IMG/VR virus record: IMGVR_UViG_3300025128_006668 | Span: 1-64,000 of that record | Origin: a virus | Reading direction: 5' to 3' (one strand) | DNA length: 64,000 nucleotides | Shown: positions 9,443 through 50,900 of the stretch, in pieces | How positions within the stretch are numbered: position 1 is the first letter of the stretch | How the letters are laid out: the number at the start of each line of letters is the position of its first letter | The notes under the pieces: generated by a model | Seen by the model: only the letters and a program-made list of their open reading frames with translations | The model's database searches: none | What the model was told of the DNA's origin: nothing | Program-made: the position numbers and the translations under genes

Positions 9443-9779
9443 GGGGGTGAAGAGGATTCGACTGTTAGTTGAAACAATAGTTGCATGTAGTAGTTGAACG
9501 AATGGCTACTATAAAAATCGTTCATACTTTTAAGTGCAGAAAAGAATTTCTCACTAGCCGCTTAGTGCGGCAGGGGTATCACAGCCCTGTAAACCAAATA
9601 GTGATGACGCAGATAAATCTGATAGAGGCTGTACACTTGAGTCATCGTGCATGATGGTAATAATTTACCTGACTCCGATAATCGGATAGCTTTGTCTGCT
9701 GTGCGACTACAACAGACTAAACATGTAGGGATTATTGCAGAGGCTAGTCAGGACGCGGGTTCAACTCCCGCCACCTCCA
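9443..9779 (+). ncRNA. ssrA: tmRNA, tag peptide (A)AEKNFSLAA
   Basis: 5' GGGGGTGAAGAGGATTCGAC and 3' GACGCGGGTTCAACTCCCGCCACCTCCA form an Ala acceptor with G3-U; resume codon GCA at 9536 after TAAGT; tag ends LAA-TAG at 9565. Confidence 0.95.
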
Positions 9780-9789
9780 CTAAAGCTTA

Positions 9790-16449: not shown

Positions 16450-16760
16450 TCTATGTAGACATTGACAACACTATATGCAGCACTTTAGACGTATCGGATT
16501 ACTCATCGAGCAAGCCTATAATGGAAAATATTGCTAAAGTTAACTCGCTTTATGATCAAGGTCACACGATAGTATATTGGACAGCCAGAGGGTCTGTTTC
16601 TGGGAAGGACTTTACAGAACTTACCGAGCAACAGCTCAAACAGTGGGGCGTAAAATACCACGAGGTTAAACTAGGAAAACCCGCATACGACATGTTTGTA
16701 GATGACAAAGCTATAAATTCAGATAACTTCTTTGGCTTTTTTAACAAGGAACTAATATGA
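16443..16760 (+). CDS. small HAD-like phosphatase (capsule biosynthesis type)
   Basis: DIDNTI, WTARG, GKP..D.FVDDKA. Confidence 0.85.
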   Translation: MVIYVDIDNTICSTLDVSDYSSSKPIMENIAKVNSLYDQGHTIVYWTARGSVSGKDFTELTEQQLKQWGVKYHEVKLGKPAYDMFVDDKAINSDNFFGFFNKELI

Positions 16761-18298
16761 GAAAAACAAGTACACTAGTAATATATGAGATGGCTAACAA
16801 TCACATGGGTGATGTGGATCATGCTAAACGTATGATAGATAGATATGCAGATATTTCATGCTTATATGGAGATGTCTTCGACTTCGCGTGGAAGTTTCAA
16901 TTTAGAGACTTAGAAACATTCATCCACAAAGATTATGTCGGCAAGGATGACCATAAATATGTAAAGAGGTTTTCTGAGACAAGGCTTTCTGCTGAGCAAT
17001 TTCAAGAACTAAAAGAGTATGCTGAGAACAGGAACTTCTTGACTATGTGTACGGGCTTTGATGAGCCTTCGGTTGACTTAATAGAATCTATGGGGTTTGA
17101 TATACTTAAGGTAGCTAGTTGCTCTTTTACTGACTGGCCTCTGCTAAATAGAATTGCAAATTCAGATAAGCCAATTATTCTTTCTACTGCAGGATCAACA
17201 TTTGATGACATTGACAGAGTCGTAAGCTTTCTAGAGCATAGAGAAAAGAGCTTCTCATTAATGCATTGCGTTGGAGAATATCCTACCAAGCACTCAAACT
17301 TACAACTAAATCAAATTACGGCGTTAAAAAATAGATATCCGTCTATTGAGGTTGGCTACTCTACACATGAGAGCCCAACGGAGGTAAGAGCAATCCAGCT
17401 GGCTATAGCCAAGGGCGCTACAATAGTCGAAAAGCATGTAGCTTTAGAAACTTCTGAGTATAAACCAAATGCATATTCAGTAACGCCAGAACAAATGGCA
17501 GACTGGCTAGCTTCGGCCTACGCTGCTATTGAAATGTGTGGGGAGACAGAGTTTAGATTAGAGGCGTCAGAAAAAGAATTATCCGACCTTAGACAATTTA
17601 AGAGAGGGGTTTTCCTAAAGAGAGACATCTCTCAAGGAGAAAGCATCTCTCCAGATGATGTTTACTGCGCTTGGCCAAATGAAGATGGTCAACTACTTGC
17701 ATCAGACCTGTCTAAGTACAACGAGTTTGTTTCTACACGTAACCTATCTGCTGACTCGGCTCTACATTCTGACGGTCTTGAGATTAATAACACAAGAGGC
17801 AAGGTCTGGGATATAGTTCAAGAGGTCAAGGAATTTTTGAATAGTTCAAATGTTATATTCCCTAAGCATGCAGATCTAGAGATATCTCACCATTATGGTT
17901 TAGAAAATTTCAAGGACACTGGTATAAGTATGATAACTGTGGTGAACAGAGAATATTGCAAAAAGTTGATTATAGTCTTAGCAAATCAGACTCATCCTGA
18001 GCAATATCACTTAAAGAAAGAAGAAACCTTTGTTGTGTTGCATGGAAAGCTAGAGTTAAAGTTATCAAAATTGAATCATGTGCCTAACAGTTGGGATGAG
18101 ATTGAAACTACAACACACTCAATGACGGCTGGAGATATAATTACTATAGAACCAGAGGTTAGACATGAATTCTTTAGCGAGGAAGGATGTATTTTAGAAG
18201 AGGTTTCCTCTACTCACTATGTAGATGATTCGTATTACACCGACCCTGCTATTGCGGAAAACAAAAACAGAAAGACATTCGTATCGTATTGGAACTAA
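16757..18298 (+). CDS. NeuB-family nonulosonic acid synthase with SAF and C-terminal cupin domains
   Basis: EMANNHMGD, KFQ, KVAS, MHC..EYPT, GYSTHE, EKH; C-terminal REYCKK..HPEQYH.KKEETF cupin. Confidence 0.85.
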   Translation: MRKTSTLVIYEMANNHMGDVDHAKRMIDRYADISCLYGDVFDFAWKFQFRDLETFIHKDYVGKDDHKYVKRFSETRLSAEQFQELKEYAENRNFLTMCTGFDEPSVDLIESMGFDILKVASCSFTDWPLLNRIANSDKPIILSTAGSTFDDIDRVVSFLEHREKSFSLMHCVGEYPTKHSNLQLNQITALKNRYPSIEVGYSTHESPTEVRAIQLAIAKGATIVEKHVALETSEYKPNAYSVTPEQMADWLASAYAAIEMCGETEFRLEASEKELSDLRQFKRGVFLKRDISQGESISPDDVYCAWPNEDGQLLASDLSKYNEFVSTRNLSADSALHSDGLEINNTRGKVWDIVQEVKEFLNSSNVIFPKHADLEISHHYGLENFKDTGISMITVVNREYCKKLIIVLANQTHPEQYHLKKEETFVVLHGKLELKLSKLNHVPNSWDEIETTTHSMTAGDIITIEPEVRHEFFSEEGCILEEVSSTHYVDDSYYTDPAIAENKNRKTFVSYWN

Positions 18299-23889: not shown

Positions 23890-24327
23890 ATGGCTAAGAA
23901 AAAAGAGTTTGAGTCTAATGTAACTGGAGAAAAGTGGTTTAAGCATAACTCCAAAAGATGGTCTACTGTTATTAATCAAGTAGGAACTATCATGGAGGAC
24001 GAGATCCATGACGGTAAGCATGGGGAAAAGATCACGCTAAAAGCTGGCAGCAAGGTAATAATAGACGATATCCGAGGCAGAATTAAGCCTCAGTACAGAG
24101 TCATTGACTCTGATGGTAAGGTTTGGTTCGTGTCAGCTCTAAATGTCGAATTTAGCGAAGAGCAAAGAGAAGCTACAACTGATCATTACCAGTATCGAGG
24201 AGGTGTCAGAGTAGACAAAGGCTCAAGGCATGACGGAACACCATTAAATCCTCGCTATGAGGTAGACACTACAACAGAAGAAGAGTACAAAGCAGCAAGA
24301 AAATCAAGGAGTTCACAGAATGGCTAA
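23890..24327 (+). CDS. hypothetical protein (possible SH3-like fold)
   Basis: ORF track; abuts neighbours. Confidence 0.65.
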   Translation: MAKKKEFESNVTGEKWFKHNSKRWSTVINQVGTIMEDEIHDGKHGEKITLKAGSKVIIDDIRGRIKPQYRVIDSDGKVWFVSALNVEFSEEQREATTDHYQYRGGVRVDKGSRHDGTPLNPRYEVDTTTEEEYKAARKSRSSQNG

Positions 24328-25708
24328 TTCCCATAACCACATGTTTCACAATCCTTTAGAAGGAAATGTTCATGACCCAGCACCCATCTGGTCGGATGAC
24401 GAGCTGAGAGATTTTACTGAACAGTTGGCAAACGGCAAAAAGTTTACCCAAGAAGAGCTTGAAAAAATGAAGCAGGGTAAAGTTATGCAAGCTACAGAGG
24501 TTGGAGACGAAAATCTTAGACAAAACTGGCTAAAGAACTACAAGCCACATGTATATGACAAGATGATGAAGTTCCCTGAGAAGATTGCCAATGGAGAAAG
24601 TATTGCTATCATCCAATTTCAATATGACTATCTGTGTAATTTCGACTGTGAGCACTGTTGCATAGACAAGTTCTATGTCCCTAAAGACTGGGAAAAGGCC
24701 AGTGGGAGACGTAAGTTTGAACTAGAAGATGTGCGCCGTCTCTCAAAAGAATGTGATGAGATGGGTCTAGCAAACTTTGTTATCACTGGTGGAGAGCCGT
24801 TGATTATTAAAGAATATGACCAGCTTGTAGAAGCTATTGATCCATCAAAGTTTTATCTTGTTACTGACTCAAACGGCTGGTTCTTAGACTACGAAAAAGC
24901 AAAACACTTGAAAAAGATTGGGGTTGACAAGGTACAGCTCAGCCTAGACGGTGCATCTGCCGAAGACCACGATACATTTCGCAGGGCTCCCGGATCTTGG
25001 GATCGCGTCATGAGAGCTATTGACGCTTGTAAGGAAGCAGACTTGCATGTCATTCTTTCTACAGTTATCTGGAAAGACAGAATATATACAGAAGAATGGA
25101 AAAAATTCTTAGACTTTGCTGCTTCTAAGAAGGTCGGAACATACGTTGTTTATGCAAAGCCTGTAGGAGCATTTGAGAACGTAACTGATCAAATGATGAC
25201 AGAGACCGAAGGTAAAATTCTTCAGCAGTTTGAAGAAGAGTATGATATCTTTACACATATGACACCATCTTATGGGCGTGACATTGGCTGTATTGCTGTC
25301 AAGCGTATCCTGCCTGTTTCTAGATATGGAGATATTATGCCATGTCCGTACCAGCATATATCTTTAGGTAACTTCTTTGAAGAACCATTAAAAGATATAG
25401 TAGGAAGAGCTCTGAATATGAAATGGTTTGATCCTAGAAAGAACATGCCTTGTATCTGCGGCGTAGACAAAGGGTTCATTCAAAATGTCATTTCTGAATC
25501 ATATGGAGACTCTGAAGTTCCTGTTAGGTATGACAAGGTTTTAAACTCAGACGACTTCCTAGACAAAGGAAATATGGGAGACGTTGAGAAAGACAGTGGC
25601 TCCGGCAAAGAAAATGAGACTTGGAAGAATGCTCCTCTCATCACTGTCAAAGGGGCAAAGATCAGGCCTTTCAATCCAGTTACAGATTCTATCAATAGAG
25701 CTACATAA
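24320..25708 (+). CDS. radical SAM protein with SPASM/twitch-like C-terminus
   Basis: CNFDCEHC, TGGEP, SLDG, GC.A....YGDIMPCPY. Confidence 0.9.
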   Translation: MANSHNHMFHNPLEGNVHDPAPIWSDDELRDFTEQLANGKKFTQEELEKMKQGKVMQATEVGDENLRQNWLKNYKPHVYDKMMKFPEKIANGESIAIIQFQYDYLCNFDCEHCCIDKFYVPKDWEKASGRRKFELEDVRRLSKECDEMGLANFVITGGEPLIIKEYDQLVEAIDPSKFYLVTDSNGWFLDYEKAKHLKKIGVDKVQLSLDGASAEDHDTFRRAPGSWDRVMRAIDACKEADLHVILSTVIWKDRIYTEEWKKFLDFAASKKVGTYVVYAKPVGAFENVTDQMMTETEGKILQQFEEEYDIFTHMTPSYGRDIGCIAVKRILPVSRYGDIMPCPYQHISLGNFFEEPLKDIVGRALNMKWFDPRKNMPCICGVDKGFIQNVISESYGDSEVPVRYDKVLNSDDFLDKGNMGDVEKDSGSGKENETWKNAPLITVKGAKIRPFNPVTDSINRAT

Positions 25709-26044: not shown

Positions 26045-27448
26045 ATGTCTTCTACTATAGAGCAGCCCTCTAAAGAAGAATATCAGTATGGCTTTAAAGA
26101 CAACCATGCTAATATAGAAACCTTTGAGAAGGGCTTAACTTCAAAAACTGTAAAAAAAATATCTAGCATCAAGAAAGAGCCCAAGTGGATGCTTGAGCGA
26201 AGACTTGAGGCTTTGGATATATTCCATAGCAAGCCGATGCCTGAATGGGGCGGTAATATGGATGGTATAGACTTTGACAATATTGTATACTATGTCAGAC
26301 CATCAGAGAAGCAAGAGAAGGACTGGGATAGTGTACCCGAAGAGATCAGGGACACATACGATAAGCTAGGGATACCAGAAGCAGAAAAAAAATACTTAGC
26401 TGGCGTCAAAGCGCAGTATGAGAGCGAAGTTATATATGGTAGCTTAGATAAAGACCTGCAGGATATGGGCGTTCTTTTTCTCAGCACAGACGAAGCTCTG
26501 AAGAACCATGAGGAGTTGTTCCACGAATACTTCGGAAAAATCATACCTTCTAGAGATAATAAGTTTGCTGCCCTTAATACCGCCGTATGGTCTGGTGGGA
26601 GCTTTATTTACTTGCCTAAAGGCGTAAGTATAGATTTTCCTCTTCAAGCGTACTTCAGAATCAATCTGGAAAATATGGGACAGTTTGAGAGAACGTTAAT
26701 CATATGCGACGAAGACTCGCAGGCCCATTATGTAGAAGGCTGCACAGCCCCTGTTTATTCCACAGATTCCCTGCACTCGGCAGTTGTTGAAATAATAACA
26801 AAGAAGAACTCTAGATTCAGGTATAGCACAATACAAAACTGGTCTAACAATGTCTACAATCTAGTTACAAAAAGAGCTTATGCCTACGAAAATAGCGTCA
26901 TGGAGTGGATAGACGGAAATTTAGGATCTAAGCTGACGATGAAATATCCTGCTATATATCTAATGGGAGAAGGGGCTCACGGAGAAGTTCTTAGTGTTGC
27001 TTTCGCCTGCAAAGGTCAACATCAAGATGCGGGGGCAAAAGTTGTTCATGTTGCTCCAAATACATCGAGCAATATACTTTCTAAATCAATATCAAAGGAC
27101 GGCGGAAGATCTTCTTATAGAGGTCTTTGTCGAGTAGAGAAAGGCGCAGTAAACAGTAAATCGAATGTAGTATGTGATGCTCTGATACTTGACGAGGAAA
27201 GCAAGAGCGATACATACCCATACATAGAAATAATGGAACAGAGCTCCTCGGTAGGCCATGAGGCTAGCGTATCCAGAATAGGCGAGGAACAGTTATTTTA
27301 CCTAAAATCTAGAGGCTTGACTGAAGAAGAGGCTTCTAGTATGATTGTAGGAGGTTTTGTAGAGCCCTTAACGAAGGTTCTTCCTATGGAGTATAGTGTC
27401 GAACTTAACAAGTTGATACAGCTTCAAATGGAAGGGTCTATAGGCTAA
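26045..27448 (+). CDS. sufB: Fe-S cluster assembly scaffold SufB
   Basis: [56 protein letters not shown]. Confidence 0.95.
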
Positions 27449-36810: not shown

Positions 36811-39249
36811 ATGCCAATGTCTAAAAGAGTCAAGAAACGTAACGGAAGATTAGAAGATCTGAATCTTGATAAGATTAACAAGTGTGCTGAAATTGCTTGT
36901 AGAGATTTAGAAGACGTTTCGGTAAGCGAAGTAGTCCTTGATGCTAGTATACAGCTGTATGACAAAATAAGTACTAAAGAGATAGACAAGGCTCTCATTA
37001 TGTCGGCTCGGTCTAAGATAGAAAAAGAGCCTAACTATGGGTATGTTGCTGCAAGACTTCTTTTGCATAACTTGTACAAAGAAGTATTTGGAGAAGCTTT
37101 TGACACAGAGGATTTTCAGGTTAAATATAAGAAACATTTTTCTTCTAATATAAAAAGGATGGTTAAAGAAGATAGACTTAGTAAAAAGTTATTATCATAT
37201 GATCTTGATTTTTTGGCAGAAAACATAAAGCCGGATAGGGACAAGCTATTTAAATACCTAGGGATTCAAACTCTATATGACAGATATTTTGTTCATCTGA
37301 AAGGCAGAAGAATGGAGAGTCCTCAAGCCTTCTACATGAGAGTTGCCATGGGGTTGTGCCTTAATGAGGAGAATAAAGAAGAGAAAGCACTTGAAATATA
37401 TGACATGATGTCAGAGTTCAGATATTCTCCTTCTACTCCCACATTATTTAACAGCGGCACCAACAGGTCTCAACTTTCTTCATGTTATTTAAGTACTGTG
37501 CATGACTCAATAGACGGCATCTTCGGCACTATACACGGACAGGCAAGGTTATCTAAATATGCTGGAGGGTTAGGGGTTGATTGGTCTTCAATCAGAGCAT
37601 CTGGCTCTTACATAAAAGGCACGAATGGGAACTCTTCTGGTCTTGTTCCTTGGCTTAAAATATTCAATGATACTCTTGTAGCTGTGAACCAAGGAGGCAA
37701 ACGTAAGGGTGCTGGCTGTGCCTACCTAGAGGTCTGGCACTATGATATAGAAGACTTCTTAGAGCTTAGGAAAAACACTGGAGACGATAGAAGAAGATGT
37801 CATGACATGAATACTGCTTTGTGGACATGTGATGAGTTTATACAAAGGGTAAAAGACGAAAGAGATTGGTATTTATTTGATCCGGCAGAGTGTTCTAGTT
37901 TGCATGAGCTATATGGTGAACAATTTTCAGAAGCATATAATAAATATATTGAGCTTGCTGATCAGGGAGAAATTAAAGTATTCAGAAAAATGCCGGCAAA
38001 AGACCTTTGGAAAAAATGTCTTAAGGCACTGTTTGAAACGGGTCATCCTTGGATTACTTTCAAAGATCCTTCTAATATCAGATATAGCAACAAGCACGTC
38101 GGAGTTGTCCATTCATCTAACTTATGCACCGAAATACTCCTACATACAAAGCCGAGTGTTTATAACGAAGGAGAGCTATCTGAACTTGGAGAAACCGCTG
38201 TCTGTAATCTAGCTAGTATAAACCTTTCAAATCATGTCAAGGTCAGAACTATAGACTGGAAAAAACTTCAAAAAACAGTAGAGGTAGCTGTCAAAGGTTT
38301 AGACAATGTTATTGATCTTAATTTTTATCCTACCGACGAGGCTAGAGAATCGAACCTAAAGAATAGGCCTGTAGGATTAGGGGTCATGGGAACGCACGAT
38401 GTACTACACAAGCTAGGTATTGACTACGATAGTCCAGAAGCCGTGTCCCTATGTGATAGAGTACAAGAATTTATCTCACTTCATGCCATTAAGACATCTG
38501 CTATGATCGCTAAGGAGAAGGGTACGTACCCGACCTTCGGTGGTTCAGAATGGGATAAAGGAAATTTTCCTATCGACACGTATTGTGAGATGAAAAATCA
38601 GAGAGTCAAAACGCCTTGTGTGCTAGAGGACTATACTCTTTATGAGACACTAGACGAGTGGAAGTCAGTAAGAGATTTAGTATCTGAATATGGTATGAGA
38701 AATAGTAATGTGATGGCTATAGCTCCAACAGCTACTATATCTTACATACAAGGTTGTTCGCAGTCTATTGAGCCAGACTACTCTGTACTTTATGTTTACT
38801 CCACCCTTAGTGGTGAATTCACTATGGTCAATGAGCACTTCGTGAAATTAGCTAAAAAGAATGGCCTATGGTCACAGGCTTTGGTCGATGCTCTAAAGAG
38901 TGTAGATGGAGACGTGACTGCGCTTGTAGACTTGCCGGACGCATTTAAAAATGAATTTAAAAATGCATTTGATGTTAGTTATGAAACACTTATTAAGGCA
39001 GCAGCAGCAAGGCAAAAGTGGATTGATATGGGGCAGTCTCTAAACCTGTATAACAAGCATGAGAGTCTAAAATATCTTAATGATATGTATATGCTTGCGT
39101 GGGAAGAAGGGCTAAAAACAACTTATTATCTAAGAAGCAAGGCTGCAACCAGACTAGAGAAGTCTACAATATCTGAAAAAAGTCAAGGTATAATTAATCA
39201 GCCAAAGGCATGTTCTGTTTTAGACCCAGACTGTGAGAGTTGCCAATGA
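36811..39249 (+). CDS. nrdA: class Ia ribonucleotide reductase alpha subunit with ATP cone
   Basis: VKKRNG ATP cone, TPTLFN, SSCY, SNLCTEI, APTATIS, KTTYYLRS, C-terminal CESCQ. Confidence 0.97.
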   Translation: MPMSKRVKKRNGRLEDLNLDKINKCAEIACRDLEDVSVSEVVLDASIQLYDKISTKEIDKALIMSARSKIEKEPNYGYVAARLLLHNLYKEVFGEAFDTEDFQVKYKKHFSSNIKRMVKEDRLSKKLLSYDLDFLAENIKPDRDKLFKYLGIQTLYDRYFVHLKGRRMESPQAFYMRVAMGLCLNEENKEEKALEIYDMMSEFRYSPSTPTLFNSGTNRSQLSSCYLSTVHDSIDGIFGTIHGQARLSKYAGGLGVDWSSIRASGSYIKGTNGNSSGLVPWLKIFNDTLVAVNQGGKRKGAGCAYLEVWHYDIEDFLELRKNTGDDRRRCHDMNTALWTCDEFIQRVKDERDWYLFDPAECSSLHELYGEQFSEAYNKYIELADQGEIKVFRKMPAKDLWKKCLKALFETGHPWITFKDPSNIRYSNKHVGVVHSSNLCTEILLHTKPSVYNEGELSELGETAVCNLASINLSNHVKVRTIDWKKLQKTVEVAVKGLDNVIDLNFYPTDEARESNLKNRPVGLGVMGTHDVLHKLGIDYDSPEAVSLCDRVQEFISLHAIKTSAMIAKEKGTYPTFGGSEWDKGNFPIDTYCEMKNQRVKTPCVLEDYTLYETLDEWKSVRDLVSEYGMRNSNVMAIAPTATISYIQGCSQSIEPDYSVLYVYSTLSGEFTMVNEHFVKLAKKNGLWSQALVDALKSVDGDVTALVDLPDAFKNEFKNAFDVSYETLIKAAAARQKWIDMGQSLNLYNKHESLKYLNDMYMLAWEEGLKTTYYLRSKAATRLEKSTISEKSQGIINQPKACSVLDPDCESCQ

Positions 39250-40417: not shown

Positions 40418-41674
40418 ATGATTGATTTTATATTTGACAGAAGGAATTTTTTAAGAATAGGTTCTATTGGAGCAGGCATGTCGGCAGTGGGACTGTCTGA
40501 CTTTGCTCTAGGATCGCAGGATTTTACTAGTTATAAAGATAAAACCGTAGTCTGGGTATGGCTAGGAGGTGGCCCAACGCAATTTGAAACCTTCCACGCC
40601 CCTAACGACACTGTCCCTTCAGAATGGCAGCCTGTAAATGGCGCTATACATGACGCCAAGACCAACATCACTTTAGGCGCAGACTGGGTAGAACTTGCAA
40701 AACATACTTCAAAGTTAAGTATAGTCAATTCTTTCAGTCATAAAGACTCGTCTCACAGACAGGGGACGCACTTTATGATGACAGGACATTACAATCCCGA
40801 AAGAAGTACAACATCTATTGCTAAATACCCCTCTTTTGGGTCTATAGTCTCAGCCATTTATGGTGCAAATCACTCTAGTAATGGAGTGCCTACTTATGTT
40901 AAGCAAGGTAAGATTGAAGGAGATGAGGGCGCTTGGTTGGGTGGAGCATTTAAACCATTTGATCCTTCCAATAAAGATAACCTCACACCAAGAGTTGAAC
41001 TCGATAGGTTCTCAACAAGAAAAGAACTACTCGCAGGATTAGATGCTGCAAGAGTTTCCAGCAAAGGAGCTGAGTCAGTACAGTTTTACAAAGGTCAGGC
41101 TTATGATGTTATCCTAGGTTCCGCTAAAGAGGCTTTTGCTGTAGAAAAAGAAAGCGAAGCAACGAAAGCTCTTTATGGGTCTACAAAAGCTAAGGATATT
41201 GGCGAACAGCTTATCTTGGCTCGAAGACTTGCAGAAAATGGAACACGATTCATAACCCTTCATTATGGTGGATGGGATATGCATAGCAATATATCTAAGG
41301 CAATGCAAGGAAAAGTCCCTCCTTTGGATAAGGCTCTAGCAGGCTTCTTGCAAGATATACAAGACAGAGGGATGAGTGAGAAGGTTCTTCTGGTTGTAAC
41401 CGGAGAGTTTGGTAGAACTAAGTTTAATGCAAATGCAGGTAGAGACCATTGGCCTGCAATTACCCCTATGCTTATGGCAGGTGGAGAATATGAGTCCGGA
41501 AGAACGATTGGTGCTGCTGACAGATCCTATAATCCAATTGAAAAACCTGTAGGGCCTCTCGATTTACAGGCAACTTTATTTGACCACTTTGGTATTGACA
41601 CAGCAATTCAGCGTGTTGATAATGGCGGTCGTCCAAGATATTTACTAGAAGGTGAAGCTAAGGTAATTTTATAA
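40418..41674 (+). CDS. DUF1501 domain protein (copy 1)
   Basis: RRNFL, WLGGGP.Q.ETF, ARRL.E.G.RF, GWDMH, GEFGRT, GRDHWP. Confidence 0.9.
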   Translation: MIDFIFDRRNFLRIGSIGAGMSAVGLSDFALGSQDFTSYKDKTVVWVWLGGGPTQFETFHAPNDTVPSEWQPVNGAIHDAKTNITLGADWVELAKHTSKLSIVNSFSHKDSSHRQGTHFMMTGHYNPERSTTSIAKYPSFGSIVSAIYGANHSSNGVPTYVKQGKIEGDEGAWLGGAFKPFDPSNKDNLTPRVELDRFSTRKELLAGLDAARVSSKGAESVQFYKGQAYDVILGSAKEAFAVEKESEATKALYGSTKAKDIGEQLILARRLAENGTRFITLHYGGWDMHSNISKAMQGKVPPLDKALAGFLQDIQDRGMSEKVLLVVTGEFGRTKFNANAGRDHWPAITPMLMAGGEYESGRTIGAADRSYNPIEKPVGPLDLQATLFDHFGIDTAIQRVDNGGRPRYLLEGEAKVIL

Positions 41675-43092
41675 TGAAAGATAATAAGTATTTACAAGCT
41701 GTAGGAGATCACTTAAACGAGGAAGGGTTTACAGAGGAGCTTACTGAGGCTAACTTTGTTATCCCTGAGGAATCTGACTACATTGACTTTGGAGAAGAAA
41801 CCGAAGAGTGGGACGTTGCCGCAAACCGTCCCGGCTTGTGGGAGAATATAAGAAGGAAGAAGCTTAGAGAGGGCAAGAATTATAAACCTGCTAAGACGGA
41901 GAAAGAAGGGCGTCCAAGCCAAAAGGAGCTCAAAAAAGCTCAGAGCGCACCTAGAGACCCTAGAAGAACTCCTGCTCCTAAAAAAGACCAAAAGAAAGGC
42001 TCTAAAAAGAATAAGCCCGATAGCGCTAAGAAGCCAAACAAAAGTATCAAGTTCAGCAAAGAGGTAACACAGCAGCTGTCTAATAAAGTCAAAGAACATA
42101 ATGCTAAAGACAAAGGTTCTAAGGCAACGCTCGGAGCGCTAAAAGCAGTTTATAGAAGAGGCGCTGGCGCTTACTCAACTAGCCATGCGCCAAAGATGAG
42201 TCGTCATGGATGGGCCATAGCAAGAGTCAATGCTTTCTTGTACCTATTAAGAAATGGAAGGCCTAAAAACTCTGGCTACAAACAAGACAATGACCTTCTC
42301 CCAAAAGGACATCCTAGAAAAAGCTCTGCCGGTATGAAAAAGAAGTACTCAATGGGCGAAGGCAATGAGGATGTGTTCACGAACCCCGGAGAAGCAATGA
42401 AAAGAGCCAAAGAGCTCGGGCTAGACGACATTCATACACATAAGACTGATGACGGTAAGACTATCTATATGCCGGGTAAAAATCACGAAGAGTATATGAA
42501 GACTGTAACCACAAAAGGGCCCAATTATAAAAAGGTATATGCTGGTTATAAATATCAAGATCCCAAGACAGGTGAAATGTACACCTTCAGAAGAAGAGGC
42601 GTTTACAGAAAAGATGGTCGAATACTAATTCCTGTAAGAGGATCTAAGGCTCATAAGGCAGGACCAATGGAAGACCATGTGTTCACAAGCAAAGAAGCCG
42701 CCATGAAGTTTGCGAAAAAGTTCGACGACTTGAGTGACAATGTCCATACTAAAAAGACCGGAGACGGAACTGTTCTTTATATTCCCGGAAAGAATGAAGA
42801 AGAGTTTAGAAAATGGTACAAGTCGCATAAAGGGGAAGATGCTAAAGGGGCTGAGTATCAAGGTAGAAAAGTTACTCTCAATAAACCGTTTAGAACACCA
42901 GACGGGCCAAAGAAAAGATCTGTCTATGTTAAGAATGAAAAAGGTAATGTAGTTAAGGTCAACTTTGGTGATCCTAATATGAAAATCAAAAAGAACATAC
43001 CGGAGAGAAGGAAGAGTTTTAGAGCTAGACACAACTGTGATAACCCCGGTCCAAAATGGAAGGCAAGATACTGGTCTTGTAAGGCATGGTAA
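41674..43092 (+). CDS. modular Lys/Arg-rich phage protein with two internal repeats
   Basis: Modules LKAVYRRG.GAY...W..ARVN; two EDxFT..EA...A...HT....G...Y.PGKN.EE repeats; SFRARHNC...ARYWSC. Confidence 0.8.
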   Translation: MKDNKYLQAVGDHLNEEGFTEELTEANFVIPEESDYIDFGEETEEWDVAANRPGLWENIRRKKLREGKNYKPAKTEKEGRPSQKELKKAQSAPRDPRRTPAPKKDQKKGSKKNKPDSAKKPNKSIKFSKEVTQQLSNKVKEHNAKDKGSKATLGALKAVYRRGAGAYSTSHAPKMSRHGWAIARVNAFLYLLRNGRPKNSGYKQDNDLLPKGHPRKSSAGMKKKYSMGEGNEDVFTNPGEAMKRAKELGLDDIHTHKTDDGKTIYMPGKNHEEYMKTVTTKGPNYKKVYAGYKYQDPKTGEMYTFRRRGVYRKDGRILIPVRGSKAHKAGPMEDHVFTSKEAAMKFAKKFDDLSDNVHTKKTGDGTVLYIPGKNEEEFRKWYKSHKGEDAKGAEYQGRKVTLNKPFRTPDGPKKRSVYVKNEKGNVVKVNFGDPNMKIKKNIPERRKSFRARHNCDNPGPKWKARYWSCKAW

Positions 43093-43276
43093 GAATATGA
43101 ATAAAAATGAATTCCTAAAAGCAGTGGATGATTATCTCACAAAAGATGTGCGTAAAGAACAAAAGAAAAAGAAGAAGCACACTGTATATAAGCCTCCAAG
43201 CTGGAAAAAAGACAACCCCGGAAAATACCAAGTATTAGAAGCTCCAGAGCCAGATGAAGATCAAGGCCCTAGTTAA
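43037..43276 (+). CDS. small basic hypothetical protein
   Basis: ORF track; likely start 43097. Confidence 0.5.
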   Translation: MITPVQNGRQDTGLVRHGKNMNKNEFLKAVDDYLTKDVRKEQKKKKKHTVYKPPSWKKDNPGKYQVLEAPEPDEDQGPS

Positions 43277-43288
43277 AGGAAAATTGAA

Positions 43289-44596
43289 ATGAAATGTAGA
43301 GGAAACAATATTGCTCGCCGTTCTTTTATACATGTCGGAATGGCAGGAGGAATAGGATTAGGTTTATCAGATTTTTTTAGAATCAGAAAAGCCCAAGCAG
43401 ACCAAAAGTTTTACGAGAGCGTAGAGGGGCCAGCAAAGTCTGTTATCTATATTTATCTGCCCGGCGGTTCTGCGCATCAGGAAACATTTGATCCTAAACC
43501 GCTGTCTCCGTTAGAGTATAGAGGCCCAATGGCTAGCATTGAGACAAATGTTCCCGGAATCAGACTTAATGAGATGATGAAAAACACTGCTAAGCTAATG
43601 GATAAGATTTCCATCATTCGCAGTATGACACATGGAGAGGCAGCGCATGAACGAGGCACACATAATATGTTTACTGGCTATAGACCTAGTCCAGCACTCC
43701 AATATCCTTCCATTGGTTCAGTGGTTGCACATGAGTTTGGCCCACGTCATAACTTACCACCTTACGTCTGTATCCCCAATCAGCCTAATGAGTTCGCAGG
43801 TACTGGATATCTAAGTAGCTCATTCTCAGGCTTTAGTCTAGGTTCTGACCCTGCGAGTGACGGGTTTCAAGTTAGAGACTTGAAGCTTCCTAATGGTGTT
43901 AATGATGGTCGCTTTGGAACACGTCGCAAAATGCTGGGTGCTGTCAATGACTATTTTGCAACTAAAGAAAAATCAGACTCTCTGGATGCCGTAGATTCTT
44001 TTTATGATCGTGCTTACAGCTTGATTAGCAGCGAAAAAGCCAGAGATGCTTTTGATATAAACAAAGAGGATGCTGTAACTAGAGACAGGTATGGTAGAAA
44101 TACCGCTGGAGCCAGAATGCTTTTGGCTCGTCGGTTAGTCGAAGCAGGGACGAGGTTTGTAACGCTAACTTATGGTGGCTGGGATATGCATGATAATATC
44201 GAAGCCGGAATACGAAGACAAGTCCCAGCTCTAGACCAAGGACTAGCGGCATTGATAGAAGACTTAGACCAAAGAGGTCTTCTTGAATCAACCTTGGTAT
44301 GTGTGGCTTCTGAGTTTGGCAGAACCCCAAAAATAAACGCCAATTCAGGAAGAGACCACTGGCCTAAAGTGTTTAGCACCCTAATGGCAGGAGGTGGAAT
44401 CAAGGGCGGTTTAGTATATGGAAAATCCGATGCGACCGCTAGTGAGCCAGAAGAAAATGCTGTAGGAGTGGAAGACTGGGCATCTACGATTTATAATAGG
44501 ATAGGGATCGTCCCCGATAAAGAGCTTATGGCTCCCGGAGATAGACCTATTGAAATTGTAGATGGTGGTAAAGTTATTCAAGATTTAATTATTTAG
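43289..44596 (+). CDS. DUF1501 domain protein (copy 2)
   Basis: RRSFI, LPGG.AHQETFDPKP, ARRLVEAG.RFV, GWDMH, EFGRTP, GRDHWP. Confidence 0.92.
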   Translation: MKCRGNNIARRSFIHVGMAGGIGLGLSDFFRIRKAQADQKFYESVEGPAKSVIYIYLPGGSAHQETFDPKPLSPLEYRGPMASIETNVPGIRLNEMMKNTAKLMDKISIIRSMTHGEAAHERGTHNMFTGYRPSPALQYPSIGSVVAHEFGPRHNLPPYVCIPNQPNEFAGTGYLSSSFSGFSLGSDPASDGFQVRDLKLPNGVNDGRFGTRRKMLGAVNDYFATKEKSDSLDAVDSFYDRAYSLISSEKARDAFDINKEDAVTRDRYGRNTAGARMLLARRLVEAGTRFVTLTYGGWDMHDNIEAGIRRQVPALDQGLAALIEDLDQRGLLESTLVCVASEFGRTPKINANSGRDHWPKVFSTLMAGGGIKGGLVYGKSDATASEPEENAVGVEDWASTIYNRIGIVPDKELMAPGDRPIEIVDGGKVIQDLII

Positions 44597-44609
44597 TCTG
44601 GAGATAGAT

Positions 44610-44807
44610 ATGAAAAAAAGAATTCCAATTATAGCTATTATTATAGTAGTTGCGATATGTATCGCAAACAAAGATGAAATTAAACAAATGTTTAACAAAG
44701 GAGAAGATAAAGTGGTAAATTGTTCAATCTGTGTAGAAGAATGCCCATGCGTAGAAGCTGAATGCGTCTGCAAGGCAACTTGCAAATGTGATAATTGTGT
44801 TAGCTAA
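44610..44807 (+). CDS. small membrane-anchored protein with metallothionein-like Cys cluster
   Basis: TM helix then CSICVEECPCVEAECVCKATCKCDNC; GGAG RBS. Confidence 0.65.
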   Translation: MKKRIPIIAIIIVVAICIANKDEIKQMFNKGEDKVVNCSICVEECPCVEAECVCKATCKCDNCVS

Positions 44808-44824
44808 TTAACTAGAGGTGCAAA

Positions 44825-46108
44825 ATGTTAAGTTTATCAAGAAGAAGTTTTCTGTCAGTAGGAGGTTTAGGCCTTCTTACTATGCCGCAGGTATTACGCG
44901 CTCAAAATAATAATGGGACATCCCACAAGGCTGTGATTAACATCTTCCTTGGTGGTGGCCCTCCGCATCAAGATATGTGGGATATAAAGACAGAAGCTCC
45001 ATCGGAGATTCGAGGACCATTTAAGCCGATCCCGACCAATGTGGCGGGAGTGCACATCGGGGAATGTTTCCCTGAAATTGCTTCAATGTTTGATAAATTT
45101 ACAGCTATTCGTTCTGTAGTAGGATCTGATGGATCACATGATGGATACCAGTGCGTTACTGGATGGAGTCGTAAAGACATGGTGTCCGGATCTAGCTATC
45201 CAGCTATTGGGGCGTGCGCCTCTAAAATATTAGGCCCTGTTGACCCTGCTGTACCGGTTGCAGTAGGGTTAGCGGAGGCTACTCAGCATATGCCTTGGTC
45301 AGAAGCAGGAGGAGCTGGTTATCTTGGAGATACCCATAAGCCTTTCAAGCCAAATGGCCAAATGATGAAAGACCTTAAACTCAATATGGAAGTAGAAAGG
45401 TTTAAGAATAGAAAAGCCCTTCTTAATGGTTTTGCAAATATCAATAAGCAGATAGACAAGGCTGTTAATGTTGATACGTTTACTGAAGAGGCGTTTGGAG
45501 TTCTTACTTCAAGCTCTTTAGTTGATGCTTTAGACTTGTCAAAAGAAGACGCAAAGATTAGAGAAATGTATGGAGATGGTAAGCCGTTTAAATTCCAATA
45601 CGACGGAGCGCCCACAGTTAATGAGCATGTGCTTATGGCTCGCCGCTTAGTATCTGCTGGGGCACGCTCTGTCACACTATCATACGGAAGGTGGGATAGC
45701 CACGGATCTAACTTTGATCTAGTCAGAGATCATGGAGCCAAGCTAGACCAATGCGTATCGGCTCTTGTTAAAGATCTTGATCAACGAGGTATGCTTGACG
45801 ACACACTTGTTGTAGTATGGGGAGAATTTGGCAGAACCCCTAAGATCAACCCAAAGGGTGGTCGTGACCACTGGCCGCAAGTTTCTGCAGCACTACTAGC
45901 AGGAGGAGGATTCAATCACGGGCAAACCATCGGAGAAACCAATAGGCTTGGGGAAGTTCCAGAGTCCAGACCTGTGCACATACAGGAAATCTGTGCAACA
46001 ATGTATAGAGGTCTAGGTATCGACACGATGTCCACAACTTTATTAGACAATACTGGAAGACCTCAATATCTTCTAGATCACAGAGAGCCTCTAAAGGAGT
46101 TAATTTAA
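44825..46108 (+). CDS. DUF1501 domain protein (copy 3)
   Basis: RRSFL, LGGGPPHQDMWDIK, ARRLV.AG, WDSH, GEFGRTP, GRDHWP. Confidence 0.92.
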   Translation: MLSLSRRSFLSVGGLGLLTMPQVLRAQNNNGTSHKAVINIFLGGGPPHQDMWDIKTEAPSEIRGPFKPIPTNVAGVHIGECFPEIASMFDKFTAIRSVVGSDGSHDGYQCVTGWSRKDMVSGSSYPAIGACASKILGPVDPAVPVAVGLAEATQHMPWSEAGGAGYLGDTHKPFKPNGQMMKDLKLNMEVERFKNRKALLNGFANINKQIDKAVNVDTFTEEAFGVLTSSSLVDALDLSKEDAKIREMYGDGKPFKFQYDGAPTVNEHVLMARRLVSAGARSVTLSYGRWDSHGSNFDLVRDHGAKLDQCVSALVKDLDQRGMLDDTLVVVWGEFGRTPKINPKGGRDHWPQVSAALLAGGGFNHGQTIGETNRLGEVPESRPVHIQEICATMYRGLGIDTMSTTLLDNTGRPQYLLDHREPLKELI

Positions 46109-46392
46109 TGGTTAAACTAAATGATTGGGTTCAAAGAACTAAGTTTCCCCTTGAAGGAAACGCAGCATTTGACTGACATGAGTACTCTATCGCACAGGTT
46201 GTGCGTATTGATGAAGAGTGTGTGGAAGTAGACTTTGCATGTAGCTGTATGACTTTTGATGGAAGCAGCAAAAAGCTTTGGGCTCATGGAGAATATCTTC
46301 CTCTTGATGATGAGTCTTATGCGAAACATAAAAAGGCACATGACGCCTGTTGTCTTTTTGGAGAAGAACTGGAAGTAGATTATGCAACGTAG
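46108..46392 (+). CDS. 94-aa protein with in-frame TGA at codon 23 (candidate selenoprotein; alternatively a pseudogene)
   Basis: AAGGAG RBS, TAATG coupling; TGA 46174-46176 is in frame with track ORF 46201..46392; SECIS-like hairpin follows. Confidence 0.6.
46177..46213 (+). promoter_or_regulatory. candidate bacterial SECIS element
   Basis: CGCACA-GGT-TGTGCG hairpin with the apical loop 20 nt after TGA; lower pairs CAT/ATG and AGTA/TATT. Confidence 0.5.
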
Positions 46393-47599
46393 AAATTTTT
46401 TGAAACATTTATCAGTATTCCCTACCTTATCTTTAATAGAATCTCTTAGAGCTAATGAAGAGGAGCTAAAGAAGAATGGTAAGTCAGCTATCTTATTATG
46501 GATGGGCGGTGGTCCTTCAACAATGGATATTTGGGACTTGAAACCGGGTGCTCCTACAGGAGGCCCATTCAAACCTATCGGTACATCTGGAGATGTTCAG
46601 ATCTGCGAACATATGCCCCTCATGGCAAAGCAGATGCATAATGCTGCGATTATTAGAAGTATGAGTACGAGAGAAGCGGATCATATGCGTGGAAGATATT
46701 ACATGCATACGGGCTATGTTCCCAACCCAAGCATGACTCATCCTAGTTATGGATCTGTCATATCGCATCAGCTCCAAAGACCAGAAGTTTCTATCCCTAA
46801 ATTTATCTCCGTTGGAGGAGGCAGTATGGGAGCTGGTTTTTTGGGCGCTAAATATTCGCCGTTCGTTGTTAACAGCGATGGTAGAATAAGAAACCTAAAT
46901 ATGAAAGTAGACCAAAGATTCTACCAAAGAGCATATGCCTTGGACGCTATAGAAACAAGCTTTATAAATCAAAGAAGAGGTTCTGCTGCAAAAGAACATC
47001 AAGCTATACTGAAAGAAGCTTTTGGAGTACTCACAAGTTCCCAGATGGATGCTCTCAAGGTAGCTGGTGAGCCAGAGAATGTAAAAGAGAGATATGGAGA
47101 TAATGGTTTTGGTAAAGGATGCTTAATGGCTAGGCGACTAGTCGAAGCAGGAGTTCCATTTATTGAAGTCAATCTTGGGGGATGGGATAATCACCAGAAC
47201 ATTCATCCTATGTTAAGAGATACTAAGTTGCCTATGCTTGACCAAGGCATGAGTGCGTTGTTTGAAGATTTAGAACAAAGAGGGATAATTGATGACACTG
47301 TAGTTATTTGGATGGGAGAGTTTAGCAGAACTCCCCGTATCAACCAGAACGCTGGACGTGACCATTGGGCGCGTAGCTGGAGCGTTGTTGTTGGAGGAGG
47401 CGGAATGAACGGAGGCATATCTATTGGAGAAACAAGCTCCGATGGGACTAGAGTTGAGACAGAACCACATACATCGCAAGATGTTATGGCATCTGTGTGT
47501 AAAGCCTTAGGCATTTCGCTTGGCACAACATTTACTAGTAATAACGGCAGACCTATGAAAATTGCCAATTCTGGTAAGATTATTAAAGAATTATTCTAA
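46382..47599 (+). CDS. DUF1501 domain protein (copy 4)
   Basis: RRNFL, WMGGGPS.MD.WDLKP, ARRLVEAGV.F, GWDNH, GEFSRTP, GRDHW. Confidence 0.92.
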   Translation: MQRRNFLKHLSVFPTLSLIESLRANEEELKKNGKSAILLWMGGGPSTMDIWDLKPGAPTGGPFKPIGTSGDVQICEHMPLMAKQMHNAAIIRSMSTREADHMRGRYYMHTGYVPNPSMTHPSYGSVISHQLQRPEVSIPKFISVGGGSMGAGFLGAKYSPFVVNSDGRIRNLNMKVDQRFYQRAYALDAIETSFINQRRGSAAKEHQAILKEAFGVLTSSQMDALKVAGEPENVKERYGDNGFGKGCLMARRLVEAGVPFIEVNLGGWDNHQNIHPMLRDTKLPMLDQGMSALFEDLEQRGIIDDTVVIWMGEFSRTPRINQNAGRDHWARSWSVVVGGGGMNGGISIGETSSDGTRVETEPHTSQDVMASVCKALGISLGTTFTSNNGRPMKIANSGKIIKELF

Positions 47600-47895
47600 T
47601 GAAATTTTATCGAAACGCAGTCTATGTTCTTGCAACCCTTTGTTTCTTTAATATGTTACAAAGTGCTTATGTCTACAAAAAACTTGTACAAATAGAAGAG
47701 AAGCAAAATAAAATAGAGGTTAAAATACCCATTTCAGAGGATCTGAAGGAATTGCCCTTACATACTAGACTTAGAGACTCCCAGATAATGCAGGCAATCC
47801 TTATGACGCATCACCAATTAGGGGTACATGATCCGGGCTCTCAGCCTATGTGCCCTATGTGTCAACAACAGGGATTAAAAACAGTATCAGATTAA
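47599..47895 (+). CDS. membrane-anchored protein with C-terminal His/CxxC motif
   Basis: N-terminal TM; HHQLGVH...CPMC. Confidence 0.6.
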   Translation: MKFYRNAVYVLATLCFFNMLQSAYVYKKLVQIEEKQNKIEVKIPISEDLKELPLHTRLRDSQIMQAILMTHHQLGVHDPGSQPMCPMCQQQGLKTVSD

Positions 47896-47945
47896 GCTTT
47901 TTGGGGTATTTACTCTTAGATCTACAATTTTCCTAGGAGTAAAAA

Positions 47946-50900
47946 ATGGCATTTCAAACATCTGATGGCTCATCTACGGGCCTCTTTTCACCAGACGGGT
48001 CGCCTGCAGGTTCAAATCAAAATGCAGGGGTCTCACAAGGTATCAATACAGACTTAGGTGATGGCGCAGTAGAAGGTGCATCTTCAGTCAAGGGCGTTAA
48101 CAACGACAGCGCAGGAGCAGGGTCATACAACAATTCTGATGGTGGTAGTATAACGAATGCCGGAGAAGGCAATACTAAGATAGATAGAGTAGATCCGGGT
48201 AGTGATAGCCAAAGTTCTCCAGAAAATTTTGTAGAAACTATAAGTGTATCAAAAAGAAACACATATTTTAGAGATGGGATGCCATTCTACAACAGTTATT
48301 TGGGTGAGTTTGCGCAAACCCCAGAAACAAAAAACCAAGGTGTCTTTGATCAAGACTCCCAAACAGATGTCTCAGACGGAATTAGAAGTAATAATGTAGA
48401 CGCTACCGCAGGTGATACGGTAAGTAATCAAATAACTAGTTCCTTTGGTGCTGGTGCCGAGACAAAGACATATTTTGTAAATGCAAATACAGCCTATGCA
48501 GAAAATTACAACGTCGATAATAAAAATGACAAGAATAGTGAATTCGTAAGCGACCCATGTAATAGCTGCTTTGGGGAGAGAGATAACGGTATGGGGCCGG
48601 TTCAAACCGGTAGCCACCCTTGCGTGACTGTTGAAACGGAATGCCTGTCCTGTCTAGAAGGATTAGGAGCTAAGCAAACAAATGTATTACTTCCTGTGTT
48701 TCAGGGCACAGTTGGAGTTCGAGGTGTAAATGAGGCCGGCCTAAATGACGGAACTGTTGATCTAAAGACAGGCTATTGGGCATTAAATCCAAACACGACC
48801 GTATCAGCTGCAGGCTACGAAGAAGGTCAAGATGTTGAAAATGGGGACATCTTTAGAGGTCAGACAAATGGCCAGTGCGACCCGACAAGATCAGGCCCTA
48901 GAGGACCAGTCAATGTAGCAAAAAGGCAGTTTAGAGGAGGAGTGGATGCCGGAGCCGATGAGTGTCAAGCTGGAGCAACCCATATGGTTAAAGGTATCGC
49001 TACTGCCCCGTCTCAAAACACTCTACCAGTATCAGACAGAAACAAGAGAGTTGCTAGTTTAGCATCTGTTGTAGGTAACTGTACGTTCAGCTATACTCTT
49101 CGATATCTAGGAGAAACTTGGAATGCTAACCAGCATGGAAATAAAGTTTTCTGTATCGACGGAATAGGCGAATCTGGAATCCAGATAACTGCTTATGAAA
49201 AGCGGCTCAAGGACGACGGTACTCCCGCCGGGGAAGAGGGAGGTAGTAACAGAAGTGGCCCAATGAGCGAGAGAGGTAACAACTGTGCAAATAGCGGATA
49301 CTACGATCTCTATGCTTGTGGTTTTGGAACAGGTGCTGCCGACATACTTGGAAATGTCGATGGAGGAGGAGAGGTTTATGGCCCACTTGTGCGAGTCGGC
49401 ACATTAAACAAAGGTGAATTCCAAGATCCCTGTACCTGCCAATACAGATACCTAAGAGGATCTAAATACTCAGACTTAGTTGATCTCGCATACGGAGGAG
49501 CGATAGGTAATATACAAGACGAGTTCCTTCCTGTATTTGCTACCGGAGCATGTAGCGATCCTAATATCTTATCGAATAATTGGCACATGGGTCACCTTCC
49601 AGCGGAGGGCAGTCCTGTTACAAGTCATGGAGATGATCTAGTCAGCTGTGGATCTGACATCTTTGTACTATCTTCAGGTGCTGGTGGAACAGGAGTCTAC
49701 TGGTCGGATGAAAAATGCGATTGGATGATTCCTCTCCAAGTAGGAAGCACTGTGGAACCATATGACCCTACAGGTGTTTGCATGCTGGTATCTGGAGAGA
49801 TGGATGGTGTCTTTGGGCAACCTTTAGGTGGAGAAATGGCCTTTGATCCAGTTAATGGATTTACTGAAAACTCAAGAAGTGGAGCATGCGGCTCTGGCCC
49901 AGTCCTGTGGCATGAAGAAACAAAGCTTTATAAGACTACTAAGTTTGTAAATAGTCCATATTGTTGTAACGCTCCTTATCCGGTTGGTAATTGTGATGCT
50001 GAGGGTAACATTCCTGACTTCTGGGCTTACGATATTGTTAAAATTGATGATTTCAGCTCTGCTGCTGAAAGATCGGTTGGTTGCGTAGCCGGTAAATTCC
50101 CAAGTGGAACTCAAGGTATTATCAATGAAGTTGTATTTGCGCGCAGCGATTCTGTCGGTTTTACTGCAACAGTGTACCCGTGGGTGGCAACGATGGAAAA
50201 ACCAATGCCTCATTTTACTGGTGGAACTCTTGGCCCTAATGGAACTAGTATATTCTATCCACCGGGACTAAATAACACAGAGTTCGGTCTTCCATCCTGC
50301 GATTCTTGGGACGATGCCGGACAGACTTGCCAATGGCTAGCGGGTGTTGACTTATACAGCTGCTTTGCAAACTCAGGAACTGGTTGTCACTCTGAGTTAT
50401 TTGGAGAAAGCCAAGTATATCTAGGATATGCATATGTCCCTGTAGATGACATCACAAAGATAAGTAGGCCTACATGGAGAAGTAATGGCTGCTTTATTAC
50501 TGACCTTGCTCAACGCACCGACGGGCCTGTAACAATTGGCACAACTTGTCCACGAGATAACTGCGGATTGTATTACGGAGCTGAGAGTGCAGTTAAGGCC
50601 TGTGACGATAGTGAGTGTGATACATACTTTAGAAATCCTCCTTTTGCACTCGGTGAATTTGTCAAGGCTAAAGCAACAACAGGTGTAGACAACATCCTAT
50701 ATAACGCGGCTGTTTTTATAGCAGAGCTTAGTGAAGAGATAGGAGACGCCGAACAATGGGCGAAGGATAATCCTTATATATGGCAGGTTTCGAGTTACGT
50801 GTTCAACCATTCTCCGGGTAATCCAGCCGCTGAGTCAGGAGTTGACTGTTTCTACCAGTATACTTTAATTGGATCAACTTGCTGGGTTAGCGGAGACGGA

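Follow-up and report, generated by a model that had tools for sequence, protein, structure and literature searches.

The paradigm of a SelB-dependent gene with a bacterial selenocysteine insertion sequence (bSECIS) inside its coding region is fdhF of Escherichia coli. Bacterial genes of this kind carry an in-frame UGA and then a small stem-loop within the coding sequence, whose first loop positions hold G and whose loop lies at a distance of 16-37 nt from the UGA, and their decoding needs selA, selB, selC and selD. We describe here a gene with the same arrangement in a giant marine bacteriophage. It lies at positions 46108-46392 of IMG/VR record IMGVR_UViG_3300025128_006668 (125,401 bases; CheckV completeness 52%), of which the first 64 kb is called the window below. 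Judging from sequence comparison, the gene probably encodes a 94-residue phage selenoprotein, made by SelB-dependent insertion of selenocysteine (Sec) under the direction of a SECIS element that is shared with the selD gene of the host. The phage gene would rely on host machinery for its decoding, and its Sec would stand in a D-U-H context, whereas the bacterial bSECIS genes have a CxxU or UxxC redox motif. The phage protein family also differs from those genes in that no Cys-containing or cellular homologue appeared in the searches made.

The closest precedents among viruses are found in poxviruses. The available text of one source (PMC8310308) names the glutathione peroxidases (GPx) of molluscum contagiosum and fowlpox virus as virus-encoded selenoproteins, and the GPx genes of these two poxviruses are the only virus selenoproteins documented there. 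The poxvirus genes and the phage gene (the latter as a candidate) have in common that a virus encodes a selenoprotein and exploits the Sec machinery of its host. The poxvirus genes belong to eukaryotic viruses, have a eukaryotic-type SECIS and show a recognisable cellular GPx ancestry, whereas the present gene belongs to a bacteriophage, has a bacterial-type SECIS and has no known cellular relative. In the literature searched, to the extent that its text was available, "viral selenoprotein" is used only in papers on eukaryotic viruses. No paper using the phrases "phage-encoded selenoprotein", "phage selenoprotein" or "virus-encoded selenoprotein" was found, nor was any report of a phage selenoprotein, in literature searches that covered papers without their supplements, where lists of predicted families may stand. 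Within the portions available, no word starting with phage, virus or viral stands in a review of prokaryotic selenoproteomes from 2026 (PMC13188914), the Global Ocean Sampling (GOS) survey (PMC9402790) reports selenoprotein families with few or no viral sequences, and a paper on huge phages (PMC10747093) infers possible Sec use only from tRNA-Sec annotations. What is known here is the mechanism; what is new is its carrier, the sharing of the SECIS and the protein family.

A phage gene can also be extended past a stop codon by other means, and the A1 protein of RNA phage Q-beta is a product of UGA read-through. Extension past a stop is common to Q-beta A1, to the recoded phages that use code 4 or 15 (PMC9523058, in the text available) and to the present gene, but neither A1 nor the recoded phages need a SelB-type hairpin. 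In the recoded phages a stop codon is reassigned in many genes, whereas here a single TGA is read through and TGA still terminates other genes of the same genome.

The in-frame UGA and the frame around it

The elements on which the argument turns are these:

44825-46108, plus strand: upstream DUF1501 gene (Pfam PF07394, E = 2.1e-83)
46094-46099, plus strand: Shine-Dalgarno sequence AAGGAG, 8 nt before the ATG; purine-rich equivalents precede the ATG in relatives
46108-46392, plus strand: candidate selenoprotein gene; its 94 codons, the 23rd of them for U, are followed by TAG
46174-46176, plus strand: in-frame TGA, the proposed Sec codon (codon 23); TGA in 45 of 45 DNA copies
46191-46205, plus strand: SECIS-like apical hairpin, stem 46191-46196 with 46200-46205, loop GGT 46197-46199
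46382-47599, plus strand: downstream DUF1501 gene (Pfam PF07394, E = 2.7e-104)

In the window the genes are on the plus strand. The ATG at 46108 shares a base with the TAA that ends the upstream DUF1501 gene (46106-46108), and the frame so opened extends to the TAG at 46390-46392, overlapping the start (ATG at 46382) of the DUF1501 gene that follows. Only the TGA of codon 23 interrupts it, giving AAFD*HEYS. An initial annotation of this DNA had described a start coupled in TAATG, an AAGGAG ribosome-binding site and a frame open between two DUF1501 genes except for this one TGA, and all of these are present.

Relatives of the small gene came from IMG/VR (6 + 2 loci) and from marine metagenomes (34 loci), some loci being the same contig present in two collections. 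Codon 23 is TGA in every one of the 43 sequences formed by the window and these 42 loci. Two distant relatives, L044 and L045, whose proteins are 45% and 55% identical to that of the window, also have TGA, so that the codon is found in 45 of 45 copies. Thirty distinct copies cover 88 codons, with a pairwise nucleotide identity of 64-99.6% (mean 79%). In all 30 the GAC before the TGA is invariant, and the real Trp codons of the gene, codons 7 and 58, are TGG.

The initial annotation had called TGA a true stop elsewhere, citing nrdA (36811-39249). TGA does terminate 14 of the 71 plus-strand open reading frames (ORFs) of the window, nrdA among them; these 71 come from a list of 93, from which 19 minus-strand, 2 nested and 1 open-ended ORFs were dropped. 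Such use of TGA as a stop, together with TGG as the Trp codon, is not what a genome-wide assignment of TGA to Trp (NCBI code 4) would give. Still, five database proteins (P0002, P0003, P0012, P0013 and P0016) have W at codon 23, and they are what could be said for a sequencing error, a decaying gene or a general code change in the phage or its host. P0003 is the product of locus L035 except for W in place of the TGA. P0002 is the product of L005 and L027 bar one D/E change, and it runs past their terminal TGA as "LVLWKEESF". Because P0002 reads even the terminal TGA as W, the W of the database proteins is an artefact of code-4 gene calling on short contigs. The DNA encoding P0016, the most distant full-length relative, was not found in a scan of viral sequences. 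With the same TGA in 45 independent assemblies, with TGA terminating other ORFs of the window, and with W proteins that come from code-4 calling of contigs in which the DNA reads TGA, an artefact, pseudogene or code change has next to no chance of being the explanation. TGG at this site was an outcome that the initial annotation had named as fatal to its proposal, and no DNA copy has it. Other gene callers start at a GTG and give products of 60-63 residues (P0004-P0008). Gene callers that truncate the small gene to 63 residues, or write Trp by code 4, hide selenoprotein candidates.

A UGA might also be passed without selenium by a fraction of the ribosomes, with a near-cognate tRNA such as tRNA-Trp or with a suppressor tRNA from the part of the phage genome that is missing from the record, so that a 22-residue peptide is made alongside the 94-residue protein and the hairpin does no more than modulate termination. 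UGA followed by C is a weak termination context in E. coli, and C follows the UGA in 44 of the 45 copies; the lack of a Cys homologue (see below) also agrees with such read-through, and the record covers no more than about half of the phage genome. Nevertheless, the TGA never alternates with TGG in the 45 copies while both Trp codons are TGG, L044 has UGA-U, and no suppressor tRNA was found in the six phage records searched. Selenium-independent read-through would also leave a 17-18-nt match to the SECIS of host selD (see below) without a reason, and we regard it as improbable.

The coding sequence on the two sides of the UGA behaves as one gene. Codons 1-22 act as coding sequence, in that their variation is mostly synonymous, and codons 1-22 and 33-88 are conserved as protein. 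Between these blocks, all seven variable sites of codons 24-31 are synonymous third positions (30 distinct copies), and in the distant relatives the residues after the UGA vary conservatively (HEY, HDF, YPW). The first in-frame start codon after the TGA is GTG at codon 32, with no ATG, GTG or TTG before it. An AlphaFold model (14 sequences, pLDDT 73.7) has a beta-strand at residues 28-34, which spans this GTG. As in a selenoprotein gene, then, the UGA is conserved among orthologues, and the codons before and after it are under protein-level selection in a single frame. The pattern of variation indicates that ribosomes must read through the TGA at codon 23.

These data bear directly on a two-cistron arrangement, in which a 22-codon leader ORF would be followed by a 63-residue protein starting at GTG 46201, in the 3' arm of the hairpin. 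The hairpin would mask the GTG until a terminating ribosome melts it (termination-reinitiation coupling). The GTG at codon 32 is invariant and lies inside the hairpin, and the 60-63-residue products P0004-P0008 were predicted from it. However, the beta-strand across the GTG and the exclusively synonymous variation in codons 24-31 argue against two separate cistrons, as do the conservative changes that the distant relatives make in these same codons. Two cistrons would also leave the identity with the host selD SECIS unexplained, and their chance of being correct is slim.

The hairpin downstream of the UGA

The hairpin CGCACA-GGT-TGTGCG reported in the initial annotation was read in the sequence where that annotation placed it, its loop separated from the TGA by 20 nt. 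The bSECIS model, as given in the available text of PMC13188914, has a loop of 3-9 nt, an upper stem of 4-16 bp, a G in the first two loop positions, a distance of 16-37 nt from the UGA and a minimum free energy (MFE) of at most -7.5 kcal/mol. The phage hairpin falls within this model, with a 3-nt loop (GGU), a 6-bp stem and its 20-nt spacing. The bare 15-nt hairpin has an MFE of -6.3 kcal/mol; a 28-nt stretch reaches -7.5, and the 54 nt that follow the UGA reach -11.5.

The nucleotide sequence of this element is conserved beyond what coding would need. Codons 27-32 (S I A Q V V) have a third-position diversity of 0.071, versus 0.399 for 28 codons elsewhere in the gene whose residue is likewise invariant and degenerate (permutation p = 8e-5; Mann-Whitney p = 3.7e-4). 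Standard pairs occupy 99.0% of the pair cells in 32 distinct rows, and there are pair-preserving changes: the closing C-G pair has become U-A, with both sides changed, in three of these rows, L044 and L045 also carry the U-A closing pair, and an A-U pair has become G-U in L018 and L045. Mismatches in the stem are a C-A closing pair in L021 and the loss of the loop-closing A-U pair in L002. Across the copies compared, suppression of synonymous change is a stronger signal than covariation, and the comparative evidence for the hairpin is far beyond chance. Loss of the hairpin among relatives was another finding that, according to the initial annotation, would speak against a selenoprotein; instead it is kept, with one compensatory pair.

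A lower stem proposed by RNAalifold (columns 24-29 with 61-66) was rejected, as one of its pairs has 7 C-A mismatches and there is no convincing covariation. The hairpin motif occurs once in the 125-kb phage record. No other gene gap bridged by a TGA was found in that record, save one in-frame pair at 107762 on the minus strand. There, beyond the window (G000:C1:106146-107949, minus strand), a 61-aa ORF ends in TGA in frame with a following 537-aa ORF; these may be two adjacent genes or another case of read-through.

Candidate hosts and the hairpin of their selD genes

The likely host was approached through a third DUF1501 gene, upstream of the two that flank the small gene:

43289-44596, plus strand: DUF1501 paralogue on which the host inference is based (Pfam E = 3e-117)

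Among representative genomes, 402 relatives of its protein were confirmed. The top six, at 83-84% identity, belong to metagenome-assembled genomes (MAGs) of marine Pirellulaceae, Rhodopirellula or Planctomycetaceae, and a 2.24-Mb contig carries one of the six. Based on this identity, a marine Pirellulaceae lineage was taken as the likely host; the same identity of one paralogue suggests a recent exchange with the host.

Five genomes (G006-G010) picked by the 83-84% DUF1501 identity were examined for Sec machinery. All five have a tRNA-Sec (63.6-66.7 bits, against an Rfam cut-off of 47). Above the respective cut-offs, selB is found in four of the five and selA, adjoining selB, likewise in four. 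A selD gene is present in four (G006, G007, G008 and G010), each with one in-frame TGA. The candidate decoding organisms, as chosen here, thus have selA, selB, selC and selD. A host lineage lacking this machinery, the remaining outcome that the initial annotation had held to be damaging, is not what these genomes contain, and selD itself appears to be a Sec-containing gene in them. Matches to the Redoxin family number 98 in the five genomes, and 14 (L160-L173) have one in-frame TGA. Thirteen of the 14 fall into five clean contexts: PGUT, GGUTAQC, DTUPVC, IGUVFC and LTUPPF. The fourteenth, L169, was not counted as a selenoprotein because several TGAs were found in its frame. PGUT presumably corresponds to the peroxidatic Cys motif of peroxiredoxins of the bacterioferritin comigratory protein (BCP) type. 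The TGA-bearing thioredoxin-fold genes of the hosts have a hairpin 20-25 nt after the UGA, with a 6-8 bp stem and a G-containing loop. Host SECIS loops start 20, 21, 21, 25 and, in selD, 32 nt after the UGA, and the 20-nt spacing in the phage gene is inside this range.

The hairpin of the phage gene recurs in host selD. The four host selD frames read ...CAG-U-AGKLPQxA(I/V)AQVV... (4/4), and all four genes carry GCACAGGTNGTGC after the UGA or, written with its variable base, GCACAGGT(T/A/C)GTGC. Host selD and the phage gene have the same apical hairpin, (C/U)GCACAGGU(U/A/C)GUGC(G/A), which encodes the same peptide, IAQVV(R), and shows the same variants in both, namely a C-G or U-A closing pair and GGUU or GGUA. 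The longest identical run between the window and the selD of G008 is 17 nt (ATC...GCG). Runs of 18 nt are shared by L004 and the selD of G008 and by L035 and the selD of G010, and L002 shares a 13-nt run, with the GGTA variant, with the selD of G007. The phage variants therefore have exact counterparts among those of the hosts, and the putative phage SECIS resembles that of the candidate decoding organisms' own selD in all four genomes, sharing identical runs of 13-18 nt. The phage protein and host SelD are otherwise unrelated (BLASTP aligns 9 residues only, E = 0.24). The 13-mer pattern occurs seven times in the five host genomes, four times at the selD sites, while a reversed-pattern control gave two occurrences. 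The other three matches (L153, L157 and L159) were taken as chance, as none has an in-frame TGA nearby.

Host selD (L149-L152 and L154) has two conserved hairpins after the UGA, the second being the one common to the phage. Compensatory changes are seen in the first (GCUUCC/GGAAGC or AUUGCC/GGCAAU), whose loop does not begin with G.

Identity with the host SECIS would also be expected if the hairpin were a decoy or a regulatory element that mainly binds and titrates host SelB, or that makes expression of the DUF1501 island follow selenium status, with most ribosomes terminating at the UGA. The translational coupling of the small gene to the DUF1501 genes on both sides fits such a role as well. 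A decoy, however, needs no protein downstream, and there is clear protein-level selection over the 71 codons after the UGA, including invariant C45, C47, H78 and C82, which makes a SelB decoy highly improbable. Each of the rival explanations leaves either the identity with selD or the selection in frame 0 unexplained.

A selenoprotein could be made from this gene as follows. Host ribosomes would begin at the ATG, which is coupled to the DUF1501 gene before it, and the hairpin CGCACA-GGU-UGUGCG, 20 nt past UGA-23, would bind host SelB carrying Sec-tRNA(Sec). Sec would then be inserted at UGA-23 and translation would go on to the TAG. The hairpin itself would have been captured from host selD or would have converged on it. 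The initial annotation had proposed just such a phage selenoprotein decoded by host SelABC, and the proposal gains from several things read from sequence: the UGA is conserved, both sides of it are translated in one frame, the hairpin is under selection and identical with that of selD, and the candidate hosts have Sec machinery.

Several observations weigh against a phage selenoprotein or against parts of the case for it. A search for homologues with Cys at position 23, suggested in the initial annotation, gave none, since all 45 DNA copies have TGA. Cys-containing homologues are usual, though not obligatory, and according to the available text of PMC13188914 nearly all selenoproteins have them. 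No cellular homologue was found in a search of genome contigs, and 201 genomes of the host family gave only two partial matches at chance level (E ~0.007-0.008 per genome). The covariation is limited, resting essentially on one stem pair. As a single sequence the region does not fold beyond chance (71-nt fold, -16 kcal/mol, z = -0.16 versus shuffles). No SECIS family was among the four weak Rfam matches (E <= 10) in 46000-46500; bacterial SECIS elements are poorly represented in Rfam, according to the available text of a preprint (bioRxiv 10.64898/2026.04.03.716425). The UGA-to-loop distance is 32 nt in host selD, with the extra hairpin in between, and 20 nt in the phage gene. The assignment of the phage to a marine Pirellulaceae planctomycete, which we consider likely, is based on a single gene family common to both and on the hairpin. 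Finally, none of the Sec machinery was found in the phage records searched, each 20-52% complete: six were searched for tRNA-Sec, five for selA and selD, and two for selB. The 125-kb record has four tRNAs plus a transfer-messenger RNA (tmRNA), and neither a tRNA-Sec nor a UGA suppressor tRNA is among its tRNAs.

A more far-reaching proposal can be put forward only tentatively, with somewhat less than an even chance of being right as a whole. The gene would represent the first phage selenoprotein family, one without cellular or Cys-containing relatives, whose SECIS was taken from host selD or converged on it and follows the variants of the host strains. The hairpin would then be a host-matching element, and expression of the DUF1501 island would be tied to the selenium status of the host. 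If the gene does encode a selenoprotein, phages exploit the 21st amino acid, recruiting host SelB through a copy of a host SECIS, and the described selenoprotein families gain one that lacks a Cys form and has its Sec in an unusual D-U-H site. Because SECIS elements are lineage-specific, the hairpin would also be a sequence-level marker for predicting the hosts of uncultured phages.

The protein family, its neighbours and other features of the record

In a 13-sequence alignment of the family, the invariant columns are C45, C47, M48, W58, E62, Y63, H78 and C82. The small protein is predicted to form an SH3-like beta-barrel with a C-terminal helix, and a putative CxC...HxxxC metal site can be recognised, apart from the D-U-H site. 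Pfam gave only a sub-threshold match to Hao_C (E = 0.045), so that no family fits, and a Foldseek search of the PDB had no match at E <= 0.001. In a wide VIA-align search the best Z score was 6.0 (PWWP, PsaE, KOW and NdhS), which is below the level that the tool considers meaningful; no function was drawn from the fold because these are generic SH3-like barrels. A profile search of 1.84 billion representatives gave 16 matches, of which the genuine ones are small phage-type proteins of the same family, with a W that comes from code-4 calling. The long matches P0019, P0020, P0022, P0024 and P0025 were rejected as relatives, being repeat proteins of the MBG, Kelch or Rax2 type that match in a low-complexity stretch. 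As a guess, the product may be a small cytoplasmic protein that serves as a redox or metal-handling partner of DUF1501 enzymes exported by the twin-arginine translocation (Tat) pathway.

The stretch 40418-47895 of the window holds four divergent DUF1501 paralogues interleaved with small Cys-rich or membrane ORFs. Besides the genes given above, it includes:

40418-41674, plus strand: fourth, divergent DUF1501-like paralogue, with tblastn cross-matches of ~30-36% to the regions of the other paralogues in related loci
44610-44807, plus strand: 65-aa Cys-rich small ORF with a hydrophobic N-terminus; no Pfam family, conserved in related loci
47599-47895, plus strand: 98-aa small ORF with a hydrophobic N-terminus and a CPMC motif; no Pfam family, conserved in related loci

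By tblastn, the small gene lies within a DUF1501 island in 42 of 44 related loci. The exceptions are L024 and L044, which have no DUF1501 gene within the DNA examined; L006 and L038 have weak partial matches only. A blastn search with 44000-48000 against a phage collection, aimed at the nearest phage, found no match.

Other parts of the record carry features of separate interest. A tmRNA with the tag peptide AEKNFSLAA lies at 9443-9780 of the window, and near it is a tRNA cluster (Glu, Asp and Met at 13-240; Arg at 1338-1410). Auxiliary genes related to Fe-S clusters and sulfur occupy 16757-18298, 24320-25708 and 26045-27448. They include a SufB-like protein that shares 64% identity with SufB as annotated in records of Staphylococcus and Listeria phages, a radical S-adenosylmethionine (SAM) protein, and a protein with a cysteine-dioxygenase-like C-terminus. 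Beyond the window, on the minus strand (G000:C1:80999-97873), are two giant ORFs of 2713 and 2369 residues, in what is presumed to be the structural region.

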